Source: Escherichia coli
GTDB taxonomy: Bacteria; Pseudomonadota; Gammaproteobacteria; Enterobacterales; Enterobacteriaceae
Direction: 5' to 3' (one strand)
Assembly: GCF_003018255.1 (NCBI RefSeq)
Contig: NZ_CP027440.1
Length of the DNA stretch: 64,000 nucleotides
Shown: piece after piece, positions 39,089 to 43,440 of the stretch
Layout: each line of letters starts with the position of its first letter
Numbering within the stretch: the stretch's first letter is position 1
Translations under genes and position numbers: made by a program
The notes under the pieces: model-generated
Told to the model about the DNA's origin: nothing
Database searches by the model: none
What the model saw: the letters and a program-made list of their open reading frames with translations, nothing else

Positions 39089-40333
39089 TTACTGATACAC
39101 CGGCAGCAAATTAAAGCTCGATAAAATATGCACCAGTGCGTTGCCGACGCCAAATACCAGAATCAGCGCAATCATCGGCTTGCCGCCCCAGACGCGGAAT
39201 TTCGGGCTGCCAAAGCGTTTACGCGATGCGCGGGCCAACAGCGCCGGTACAATTGCCGCCCAGATAGTAGCTGCTAAGCCAGCATAACCAATGGCATACA
39301 GGAATCCGTTCGGAAATAGCAGACCACCCACAACAGGCGGGGCAAAGGTCAGCAACGCCGTTTTAAAGCGGCCCAGGGCAGAGTCGTCAAAACCAAACAG
39401 ATCTGCCAGATAGTCAAACAAACCCAGCGTTACGCCGAGGAACGAACTTGCTACCGCAAAGTTTGAGAACACGACCAGCAGAAGGTCCAGGCTACGGCTG
39501 TTCAGCACGCCGCTTAATGCCTGTACCAGCACATCAATATTACCGCCCTTCTCGGCGATGCCGATAAACTCCGGACGAGGGATGTTGCCCATCGTCGCCA
39601 GCAACCAGATGGTATACAGCGCCAGCGCCATCAGCGTACCGTACACCAGGCATTTCACGATGGTTTTCGGATCTTTGCCGTAATACTTCATCAGGCTCGG
39701 CACGTTACCGTGATAACCAAACGATGCCAGACAGAATGGCAGCGTCATCAGCAGATACGGTGCATAAGACGCATTGCTTTCGGCGACGTTGAACAATGTC
39801 GCAGGCTGCACATGCCCCAGTAGGCTACCGAAGGTGAGGAAGAAGGTAATGACTTTCGCCCCCAGCACAATCGCCGTCATGCGGCTGACGGCTTTAGTGC
39901 TCAACCACACCACAAACGCCACCAGCAGTGCAAAACCAAAACCCGCTGCCCGTGCCGGGACGTTCAATGACATCTCTGCGAAGGTATGATGCAGAATCGA
40001 ACCGCTGGCAGAAATATAGGCATAGGTCAGGATATAGAGCACAAAGGCAATGGAAATGCCGTTGACCACGTTCCAGCCTTTGCCCAGCAAATCTTTGGTG
40101 ATGGTGTCAAAGCTCGAACCGATTCGGTAATTCAGGTTAGCTTCCAGAATCATCAAGCCGGAATGCAGCATACAGAACCAGGTAAAGATCAGCGCCGCCA
40201 TTGACCAGAAGAACCACGCCCCGGACATGACCACAGGCAGAGAAAACATCCCTGCGCCAATAATGGTGCCGCCGATAATCACCACGCCGCCAAGCAGCGA
40301 CGGTGACGTTTGGGTGGTGGTTAGTGTTGCCAT
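39089..40333 (-). CDS. mtr: tryptophan-specific permease
   Basis: 414-aa membrane [36 protein letters not shown]. Confidence 0.92.
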
Positions 40334-40486
40334 GAGGGCTTCTCTCCAGTGAAAAATAGTGCGACTGCGTTGTTATGCATTGCACTGTACCAGTACACGA
40401 GTACAAAAGACAGAAAAAAAGCCCCGATGGTAAAAATCGGGGCTGTATATATTATTTTACAGATTGTGTTCGCTGTTCAGCGATGA

Positions 40487-42376
40487 TTACGCATCACCAC
40501 CGAAACGACGACGACCGGTAGAGTCATCACGACGCGGAGCGCGGCCTTCACGACGTTCGCCGCTAAAACGACGACCATCACCACGACCACCTTCACGGCG
40601 TTCACCGCTGAAGTTACGACCGCCTTCACGACGTTCGCCACTGAAACCACGACCACCGCCACGACGCTCACCGCCAGTATGCGGCTGTGCATCGCCCAGT
40701 AACTGCATGTTCATCGGCTTGTTGAGAATGCGAGTGCGTGTAAAGTGTTGCAGCACTTCACCCGGCATACCTTTCGGCAGTTCGATGGTGGAGTGAGAAG
40801 CAAACAGCTTGATGTTACCAATGTAACGGCTGCTGATGTCGCCTTCGTTAGCAATCGCACCAACGATATGACGAACTTCAACACCATCATCGCGGCCCAC
40901 TTCAATGCGGTACAGCTGCATATCGCCAACATCACGACGTTCACGACGCGGACGATCTTCACGGTCACCACGCGGGCCACGGTCGTTACGATCGCGCGGA
41001 CCACGGTCATCACGGTCACGGAATTCACGTTTCGGACGCATCGGCGCATCTGGCGGAACAATCAGAGTACGTTCACCCTGTGCCATTTTCAGCAGTGCGG
41101 CGGCCAGAGTTTCGAGATCCAGCTCTTCACCTTCTGCCGTCGGCTGAATTTTGCTCAGCAGTGCACGGTATTGATCCAGATCGCTGCTTTCCAGCTGCTG
41201 CTGTACTTTAGCGGCGAATTTTTCCAGACGACGTTTGCCCAGCAGTTCTGCGTTCGGCAGTTCAACTTCCGGAATGGTCAGCTTCATGGTGCGTTCAATG
41301 TTACGCAGCAGACGACGCTCACGGTTCTCAACGAACAGCAGCGCACGGCCAGCACGGCCCGCACGACCAGTACGACCGATACGGTGAACGTAAGACTCAG
41401 AATCCATCGGGATATCGTAGTTAACTACCAGGCTGATACGCTCAACGTCCAGGCCACGGGCCGCAACGTCGGTCGCAATCAGGATGTCCAGACGACCATC
41501 TTTCAGTCGTTCCAGTGTCTGCTCACGCAGCGCCTGGTTCATGTCACCGTTCAGCGCGGCGCTGTTGTAGCCGTTACGCTCAAGGGCTTCTGCCACTTCC
41601 AGAGTCGCGTTTTTGGTACGAACGAAGATAATCGCCGCATCAAAATCTTCCGCTTCCAGGAAACGTACCAGTGCTTCGTTTTTACGCATACCCCAGACAG
41701 TCCAGTAGCTCTGGCTGATGTCAGGACGGGTAGTCACGCTGGACTGAATGCGCACTTCCTGCGGCTCTTTCATAAAGCGGCGGGTAATGCGACGAATCGC
41801 TTCCGGCATGGTTGCAGAGAACAGAGCGGTCTGATGACCTTCCGGGATCTGCGCCATAATAGTTTCAACGTCTTCGATGAAGCCCATGCGCAGCATTTCG
41901 TCAGCTTCATCCAGAACCAGACCGCTCAGTTTAGAAAGGTCCAGAGTGCCACGTTTCAGGTGATCCAGCAGACGGCCCGGAGTACCGACAACGATCTGCG
42001 GCCCCTGACGCAGGGCGCGTAATTGCACGTCATAACGCTGGCCGCCGTACAGGGCAACCACGTTTACGCCGCGCATGTGTTTAGAGAAATCCGTCATTGC
42101 CTCAGCAACCTGTACCGCCAGTTCGCGGGTCGGTGCCAACACCAGAATCTGTGGTGCTTTCAGCTCAGGATCAAGATTCTGCAGCAGAGGTAAAGAGAAT
42201 GCTGCAGTTTTTCCGCTCCCCGTCTGGGCCATACCCAGAACGTCGCGGCCATTCAGCAGATGTGGAATACACTCTGCCTGAATTGGAGATGGTTTTTCGT
42301 AACCCAGATCGTTAAGGGCTTCAAGGATAGGAGCCTTCAGGCCCAGATCTGCAAAAGTGGTTTCGAATTCAGCCAT
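40487..42376 (-). CDS. deaD: cold-shock DEAD-box RNA helicase
   Basis: ORF track 40487..42442; ATG at 42376 gives [33 protein letters not shown]; DEAD motif; RGG/GERREG-rich C-terminus. Confidence 0.93.
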
Positions 42377-42449
42377 GTAGTACGTGTGCCTCAAAATTAA
42401 TGGCGGCCAGTCTACATAACTCATCATGAAATTGATCAGCAATTTTCAT
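42369..42449 (-). CDS. yrbN: 26-codon small ORF overlapping the deaD start
   Basis: Read directly: ATG AAA ATT GCT GAT CAA TTT CAT GAT GAG TTA TGT AGA CTG GCC GCC ATT AAT TTT GAG GCA CAC GTA CTA CAT GGC TGA; stop overlaps the deaD ATG; name recalled from K-12 annotation. Confidence 0.55.
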
Positions 42450-42555
42450 TGAAAAGTGTGAACCGGCTCAAAGTAGGTGTATTAACGAACAACAACGCCC
42501 TCACCCGTTAAGGTGATGGCAATCAAAAAAGATTACGGGCTGATGTGTACGTCAG

Positions 42556-43440
42556 CTATTGCTGGTCCGATTCTGCCAGGTCATCTTGGTCCTGGCCCAG
42601 GAGCGATAATTCCAACAATGCGTATCGGTGCTCAACAAAGTTATGAACGTTGTTGGCAACCGCCAGTTTGAACAGTGCCGTGGCGCTGTCCAAATCCCCC
42701 AGACTTAGGTAGTACTTACCTAAATAGAAGTTGGTTTCACTGAGATGCTCAGCGAGCGAGGTGTTATCCGTTGCGTCCGCCTTGAGCCTTTCCATTAACG
42801 TTTGTTCGCTAATGTTGCCCAGGTAGAACTCGACAATGTTCCATCCCCACTGTTCCTTATCCGATTTTTCGAAGTGCTGTTTCAACACTTCTTTAGCCTG
42901 CTTCTCATCGAGCTTCTGCTCGGCGAGATAAAGCCACAGACTACGGAAAGGATCATTGGGATCGTCTTGATAAAACGCCAGCAGATCATCTTGCGCTAAC
43001 TTGTCACGACCGCCGTAATATAATGCGATCCCGCGATTCAAGTGCGCGTAGTTGTAAGTTGGATCAAGCTCAAGTACAGAATCAAACGCTTCATAGGCAG
43101 CATCAAAATTGCCTGCCTGCGTTAAATATATGCCTAAGTAATTGAATACTTCAGGCATATCCGGTCGGATTGCCAGCGCTTGCGAAAAATCGTTACGCGC
43201 TAATGCCCTCAGACCGAGACTATCATACAACACTCCGCGCTCATATAAAAGCTGTGCGCGTTCGTCATCGGTTAAAGCCCGACTGGCAAGGATTTGTTCC
43301 ATACGTGCCAGAATCACTTCCTGCTGTAAAGTCGGTTGCAATGGTACCGCGAGGACTTCACTTTTACGCCAGGAAGTATTACTGCATCCTGCAAGCGTAA
43401 GTGCTGTCGCAACGAAACACCAGCGCAAAAAAGGCTTCAT
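42556..43440 (-). CDS. nlpI: TPR-repeat lipoprotein
   Basis: 294-aa [22 protein letters not shown] with lipobox. Confidence 0.92.

Follow-up and report, generated by a model that had tools for sequence, protein, structure and literature searches.

Directly upstream of deaD (csdA), a reading frame of 26 codons, yrbN, ends inside the first codons of the helicase gene, and this arrangement raises two questions, namely whether the frame is a gene at all and whether its translation bears on that of deaD. Among the RNA helicases of E. coli, DeaD/CsdA is the main one in cold shock, and its tight autoregulation runs via an unusually long leader. The published study of this autoregulation (Ojha & Jain, PMC7430678), in which yrbN and nlpI are nowhere mentioned, is silent on the conserved ORF at the leader end and on the fact that nlpI makes up most of the leader. 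Should translation of yrbN govern how ribosomes reach deaD, or protect the leader from Rho, it would be a missing component of this circuit; if it has no such role, yrbN would be one more small protein. In this study, the locus was analysed in a stretch of 64,000 nucleotides of Escherichia coli DNA (contig NZ_CP027440.1), referred to below as the window, and was compared with related loci.

Identity and coding capacity of yrbN

The following features of the window define the junction:

42369..42449, minus strand: yrbN CDS (direct reading, K-12 identity, NF033440, frame intact in 78/78 species)
40487..42376, minus strand: deaD (csdA) CDS, with its true start at 42376 (ORF list, annotation, K-12)
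42376..42369, minus strand: overlap of the yrbN stop and the deaD start, ATGGCTGA, 8 nt (direct reading, annotation)
42402..42431, minus strand: yrbN core, codons 7-16, under amino-acid-level purifying selection (substitution counts)

Direct reading of the minus strand from 42449 to 42369 gave 26 codons, of which the first is ATG, and a TGA, with letters running from ATG AAA ATT to CAT GGC TGA. The ATG of deaD occupies 42376..42374, and the TGA of yrbN lies 5 nt past the A of that ATG. The first-pass annotation had described a 26-codon ORF whose stop overlaps the deaD start, and this was confirmed by the direct reading and by the open frame in all 78 species compared. Because 91 ORFs of at least 20 aa were listed in the 6 kb around yrbN, a length of 26 codons alone is within chance, and conservation is what makes yrbN real.

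The frame is the same as K-12 b4685 (YP_002791258.1) at 81 of 81 nucleotides. The genes on the minus strand follow the order rpsO, pnp, nlpI, yrbN, deaD and mtr, and the order nlpI-yrbN-deaD-mtr is that of K-12. The product matched the NCBIfam equivalog NF033440 (small_YrbN) with 76.3 bits (E = 9.4e-22), residues 1-26 aligning with profile positions 1-26, at a curated cutoff of 33 bits. Among the E. coli records listed, RefSeq labels the gene 'yrbN: protein YrbN' (WP_010723222.1) with an 8-nt overlap with deaD; the K-12 product annotation reads 'uncharacterized', and in public databases the name YrbN is given to variants from Enterobacteriaceae, Klebsiella, Yersiniaceae and Edwardsiella. A 351-nt yrbN region was found in 5425 of 5426 complete E. 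coli genomes, in 5424 of them at 99% identity or more. On the identity to b4685, the RefSeq naming and the NF033440 score above cutoff, the earlier attribution of the ORF to K-12 yrbN holds. The ORF is the known small gene yrbN and a member of the YrbN family without any difference. Since the frame is matched in RefSeq, NCBIfam and K-12, and the 8-nt yrbN/deaD overlap was already given in a 2021 preprint (bioRxiv 10.1101/2021.03.08.434349), both the gene and the overlap were already known, and no new element is involved.

The local copy of Pfam-A, which is probably older than PF28071, returned no family for YrbN; an identical 26-aa product at another locus (L089) is labelled PF28071:YrbN in precomputed annotation. 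Searches of the PDB and of the local Pfam with this very short query yielded no domain, structure or related PDB entry, and yrbN is missing from the Salmonella census supplements. Tagged YrbN protein was reportedly detected by Hemm et al. in 2008.

Some further observations were made on the surroundings of the gene and on its name. Between positions 39316-42916 of the window and 3304800-3308400 of K-12 MG1655, 78 of 3601 positions differ (2.2%), yet yrbN is identical. A 115-nt region containing yrbN is also identical in Escherichia albertii. In addition, the legend of Figure 2 in PMC6001520 calls a cold-induced small protein 'yrbN_PAIR_0', and the text there names YnfR; the label appears to be a leftover working name and to hold no evidence on YrbN.

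For the comparison, the 80 closest species loci were taken, mostly from Enterobacteriaceae together with Hafnia, Edwardsiella, Serratia, Ewingella and Chimaeribacter; the usable set consisted of the 78, among the fetched loci and the window itself, whose DNA extended far enough upstream. All 78 keep the yrbN frame open from a conserved ATG-AAA, with lengths of 24-26 codons and 38 distinct peptides. The distance from the yrbN ATG to the deaD ATG is 67, 70 or 73 nt and always 1 mod 3. Indels within yrbN are all multiples of 3 and arose in at least five independent lineages, and 1-nt indels occur 2-3 nt 5' of the yrbN ATG. Upstream of the deaD ATG, stops interrupt the deaD frame in 34 of the 78 species and the third frame in all of them. 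The mechanical deaD ORF reaches a TTG at 42442 and counts 651 aa, which we take to resemble the old long DeaD annotation (646/651 aa). An N-terminal extension of DeaD over 42377-42442 was rejected, given these stops in 34/78 species and an omega of 0.7-1.4 in the frames other than that of yrbN.

Substitutions were counted by parsimony on a neighbour-joining tree of deaD, whose third positions show a mean of 10.3 changes per site. Within core codons 7-16, 22 synonymous and 9 non-synonymous changes were found (omega ~0.11); read in either other frame, the same changes would give 5 synonymous and 25 non-synonymous. The synonymous excess has a binomial P of 4e-9 to 2e-5 for kappa 1-6. Residues 7-16 follow the pattern F-[HL]-[DV]-E-L-[CRS]-R-L-A-A, and the two-fold wobble sites of His8 and Asp9 carry T or C only. 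The gene is a mosaic, in which every position of codons 3-6 and 17-19 is free to vary (omega ~0.9 for codons 3-6) and the C-terminal residues (HG, HD, DY) are set by the deaD start region. Purifying selection across the 26 codons, to which the first-pass annotation had looked for support, was found in the core (omega ~0.1) and is lacking in codons 3-6. A metal-binding arrangement H-x3-C...H-x2-H was also considered for YrbN and was rejected, since several lineages have other residues in place of His8, Cys12 and His22. Judged by this comparison, Enterobacteriaceae, Hafniaceae and Yersiniaceae have all kept the frame, the ATG and the length of 24-26 codons, and yrbN is, by its pattern of change, a genuinely coding gene of 26 codons.

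The limits of the family were followed in outgroup loci, every one of which keeps the order pnp-nlpI-deaD. One Serratia-like and two E. coli-like outgroup loci carry yrbN. In a metagenomic relative from Enterobacterales (L088, 900-1010), a TAA at codon 19, directly before GAGG, leaves a peptide of 18 aa with the core and residues 1-16 retained; its stop lies 19 nt 5' of the deaD ATG, and there is no overlap. In a Plesiomonas MAG (L085, 1100-1210), TTG stands for the ATG and a TAA occupies codon 11, so that the ORF is lost; the flanking nucleotide motifs are kept. Upstream of deaD in Pasteurella and in a further outgroup locus (L084), no yrbN homologue was found.

The deaD leader and its conserved nucleotides

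The leader of deaD and the conserved segments within it are as follows:

42377..43214, minus strand: deaD 5' leader, 838 nt, of which the last 73 nt are yrbN (published TSS and promoter hexamers)
42556..43440, minus strand: nlpI CDS, of which the last 659 nt double as deaD leader (ORF list, annotation, K-12)
42389..42392, minus strand: likely Shine-Dalgarno sequence of deaD, GAGG, in yrbN codons 20-21 (invariant GAGGCA, pairing -5.6 kcal/mol)
42442..42472, minus strand: block of 31 nt across the yrbN start, TTTGAGCCGGTTCACACTTTTCAATGAAAAT, with most positions invariant and the others nearly so (conservation profile, alignment)
42546..42554, minus strand: TGACGTACA, identical to the core of the cspA 5'-UTR 'cold box', just past the nlpI stop (invariant block)
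42391..42384, minus strand: AGGCACAC, in yrbN codons 20-23 and the deaD Shine-Dalgarno region (shared with the cspA 5' UTR)
42721-42765, 43081-43125, 42946-42990 and 42559-42585, minus strand: near-frozen nlpI blocks (third-position change counts)

The main TSS of deaD lies 838 nt 5' of the ATG and has a TATGAT -10 element (Ojha & Jain, PMC7430678). In the window, TATGAT at 43227..43222 and TTTATA at 43249..43244 place this TSS at 43214, inside nlpI. From 5' to 3', the leader consists of the last 659 nt of nlpI, a spacer of 106 nt and 73 nt of yrbN, which occupies +766..+846. The first-pass annotation had set yrbN at the start of the long deaD leader, which is wrong; the gene is located at the 3' end of these 838 nt. 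No promoter is present between the TSS at -838 and deaD (PMC7430678; bioRxiv 10.1101/2021.03.08.434349), and with this TSS and no internal promoter, yrbN and deaD lie on the same strand in one transcript. In Erwinia RNA-seq, yrbN (log2 3.65) and the helicase gene (3.84) are up together. DeaD autoregulates via the leader by RNase E and Rho, and the products of Rho termination in vitro are 400-900 nt long (Ojha & Jain, PMC7430678).

At the junction itself, the stop of yrbN is formed from xxT-GAx of deaD codons 2-3 or 3-4 in 78/78 species, so that the two genes overlap by 8 or 11 nt and yrbN terminates 5 or 8 nt past the A of the deaD start codon. In Pasteurella, the L084 locus and Plesiomonas, where yrbN is absent or broken, deaD still starts with ATG-xxT-GAx; it may therefore be the N-terminal codons of deaD that produce the overlapping stop as a by-product. 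The idea that the conserved T of GCT/ACT is kept by selection for the yrbN stop was rejected on the same three loci. Moreover, the overlaps of 8 nt in folP-glmM (41064-41071 of a K-12 locus, L091) and of 11 nt in agaC-agaD (2479-2489 of the same locus) are ordinary operon junctions. The GAGG preceding deaD is 12 nt from the AUG in E. coli and Enterobacteriaceae, and 9 nt from it in Hafnia, Edwardsiella and Serratia. No Shine-Dalgarno sequence was found for yrbN, the best anti-SD pairing being -3.4 to -3.6 kcal/mol at 12 nt from the start.

The nucleotides of yrbN are constrained beyond its amino acids, with 12 of 25 wobble positions invariant as against 7% in deaD (P ~4e-8). RNA structure is not supported as the explanation of this constraint. 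The fold had a z-score of -1.44, with 18 of 200 shuffles as stable; the pairs proposed by RNAalifold were all invariant, with zero compensatory changes, and covariation in the yrbN region was no better than in shuffles. A search of Rfam 15 gave no family, its sole hit being a chance snoRNA match (E = 0.88) elsewhere in nlpI. A predicted hairpin around the yrbN start, and a predicted pairing of codons 11-16 with the deaD Shine-Dalgarno sequence and AUG, were unsupported by the same z-score and the zero compensatory pairs. Thermodynamic masking of the deaD start was likewise rejected, its opening energy being 10.4 kcal/mol as against 9.0 +/- 3.9 for 43 neighbouring genes. A ribosome modelled on yrbN codons 5-15 barely altered the opening energy of the deaD start.

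Synonymous change is also low and uneven in nlpI, with a mean of 5.1 per third position as against the 10.3 of deaD. Near-frozen bins are codons 226-240 (0.4), 106-120 (1.2), 151-165 (1.9) and 286-294 (1.7), and codons 181-195 reach 13.0 changes per third position. Since most of nlpI doubles as leader, these frozen blocks may be RNA-level regulatory elements.

Two short motifs of the leader are shared with cspA. The last nine codons of nlpI, the stop and the next bases (GCAGAATCGGACCAGCAATAGCTGACG, 42546-42576) are almost invariant among 74 distinct sequences and run into the match to the cold-box core of cspA in the L082 locus; as a 9-mer such as TGACGTACA is expected ~0.5 times by chance, its weight comes from the cross-species invariance. 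The 8-mer AGGCACAC is common to the 'upstream box' of cspA, GCCGAAAGGCACAC (L082, 367-374), at a comparable distance from the start codon, and has a chance expectation of ~2 over the whole leader. A cold box was reportedly noted in csdA by Jiang, Fang and Inouye in 1996. The gene at 401-613 of the L082 locus (NZ_CP025859.1), between yiaG and hokA, carries the RefSeq label 'cspE'; it is 100% identical to the cspA coding sequence, and the label is presumably a naming slip.

Possible effects of yrbN on deaD

From the geometry of the junction, coupling or occlusion, as proposed in the first-pass annotation, is a reasonable reading. We tentatively prefer the former, and hold it plausible though still short of probable that yrbN is positively coupled to deaD by termination and re-initiation, together with shielding of the Rho-sensitive distal leader. 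According to this model, ribosomes would load at the AU-rich yrbN start, which has no Shine-Dalgarno sequence, and those translating yrbN would cross the deaD initiation region and melt any structure there. They would then terminate at the UGA on top of the deaD AUG, and a fraction might re-initiate, aided by GAGG. At the same time, ribosome traffic on yrbN would cover the distal leader within the 400-900 nt Rho zone, which would link yrbN initiation to read-through into deaD.

This proposal is favoured by the overlap of stop and start in all 78 species, by a deaD Shine-Dalgarno sequence consisting only of GAGG and lying 12 nt from the AUG in Enterobacteriaceae, and by co-transcription, with yrbN at +766..+846 falling in the range of the Rho products. 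Moreover, when the upstream smORFs pssL and yoaL are blocked, the downstream genes that they overlap are expressed less. However, the same geometry represses in baxL and argL, deaD has its own Shine-Dalgarno sequence and an initiation region that is not unusually structured, and overlaps of 8 and 11 nt are ordinary operon junctions. The overlap may also be incidental, in view of the T-GA that persists where yrbN is absent or broken, and in the L088 relative yrbN already stops at codon 19, which leaves 19 nt to the deaD ATG. In addition, a selected peptide core is not needed for pure coupling, so a further role would have to be assumed, be it that of a nascent chain in cis or one in trans.

Analogous smORFs of E. 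coli act in both directions, and therefore the geometry alone cannot decide the sign of the effect. In the opposite sense, ribosomes on yrbN would cover the Shine-Dalgarno sequence and AUG of deaD and lower de novo initiation, acting as a brake that keeps DeaD low at 37 C. Such a brake seems unlikely, although yrbN does read across both GAGG and the AUG, and replacement of the stop codons of baxL and argL raises downstream expression. The whole deaD leader is strongly repressive (bioRxiv 10.1101/2021.03.08.434349; PMC7430678), which agrees with a brake, but a deaD-lacZ fusion whose leader was cut down to its final 100 nt, which still contain yrbN, was well expressed and unregulated (Ojha & Jain, PMC7430678). 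The absence of a Shine-Dalgarno sequence also suggests that ribosome traffic on yrbN may be modest. Because the 720-nt leader deletion of Ojha & Jain retains yrbN, it says nothing on the effect of yrbN, and the GFP constructs of the preprint were unable to separate this effect (bioRxiv 10.1101/2021.03.08.434349).

YrbN might instead work in trans as an independent small protein, its target in the cold being, for example, DeaD, the ribosome or the degradosome, and the overlap would be a compact operon junction. The selection on residues 7-16 at the amino-acid level, the retention of residues 1-16 in the L088 relative that drops the overlap, the ordinariness of 8-nt overlaps, and the maintenance and naming of the family across several families of Enterobacterales all argue in its favour. 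On the other hand, residues 3-6 and 17-19 are free to change, the searches for a domain, a structure or a relative in the PDB gave nothing, and the protein, at only 3 kDa, is not known to have a phenotype. A role of this kind on its own is conceivable but improbable.

A more elaborate proposal joins the peptide core to the nucleotide-level signal, namely the 31-nt block and the 12 frozen wobbles. In this proposal, about 110 nt would be dual-coded and would serve as a gate, responsive to cold or to DeaD, that controls the deaD start and distal Rho termination, acting via yrbN initiation or via a nascent-chain effect of residues 7-16. If true, such a gate would add to DeaD autoregulation its missing translational arm; we consider it doubtful, and decidedly so.

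Leader peptides such as tnaC, secM, speFL and toiL provide precedents for a nascent-peptide sensor, in which the core of YrbN would pause the ribosome at the deaD start from within the tunnel and gate Rho access or deaD initiation on cold or another signal. With the ribosome on the stop codon, a conserved block 10-19 residues from the C terminus would fit this role, and a Rho-sensitive leader is documented; but YrbN has no known arrest motif and no C-terminal proline, its C-terminal residues are variable and dictated by the deaD start region, and the L088 peptide is shortened, which makes a sensor very unlikely. That the conservation belongs to an RNA or DNA element of the leader only, with the open frame as its by-product, is scarcely credible, since the invariant wobble positions (12/25 vs 7% in deaD), the almost invariant 31-nt start block and the Plesiomonas motifs that outlast the broken ORF are set against a frame-specific synonymous excess, indels in multiples of three only, a frame open in 78/78 species through two hypervariable segments, an RNA structure that is unsupported (z-score -1.44, zero compensatory pairs, no Rfam family) and the tagged protein reportedly detected by Hemm et al. 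in 2008.

Comparison with known systems

With respect to cold-shock genes, the deaD leader has short matches to the cspA 5'-UTR, TGACGTACA and AGGCACAC. The classical coupled junctions are trpE-trpD and trpB-trpA. Like coupled operon junctions such as trpE-trpD, and like folP-glmM with its 8-nt overlap in the same region, yrbN and deaD lie on the same strand, are co-transcribed and have stop and start a few nt apart. The junction differs from the classical ones in its upstream partner, which is no full-length gene but a frame of 26 codons without a Shine-Dalgarno sequence, set in an 838-nt Rho-sensitive leader.

A second group of relevance comprises the leader peptides that act through Rho or through unmasking of a start, including tnaC-tnaA, secM-secA, speFL, mgtL and toiL. 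In common with these, yrbN is short and conserved, lies in a long leader on which Rho-dependent termination acts and has a conserved internal segment; it differs from them in that no arrest motif was found and no alternative RNA structures were supported.

Finally, pairs of an upstream smORF and a downstream gene have been described as pssL-pssA, yoaL-yoaE, baxL-baxA, argL-argF and evgL-evgA (Weaver et al. 2019). In these pairs the effect on the downstream gene was measured, pssL and yoaL acting positively and baxL and argL negatively. The smORFs of Weaver et al. 2019 are, like yrbN, short leader ORFs in another frame whose stop lies just inside the downstream gene.
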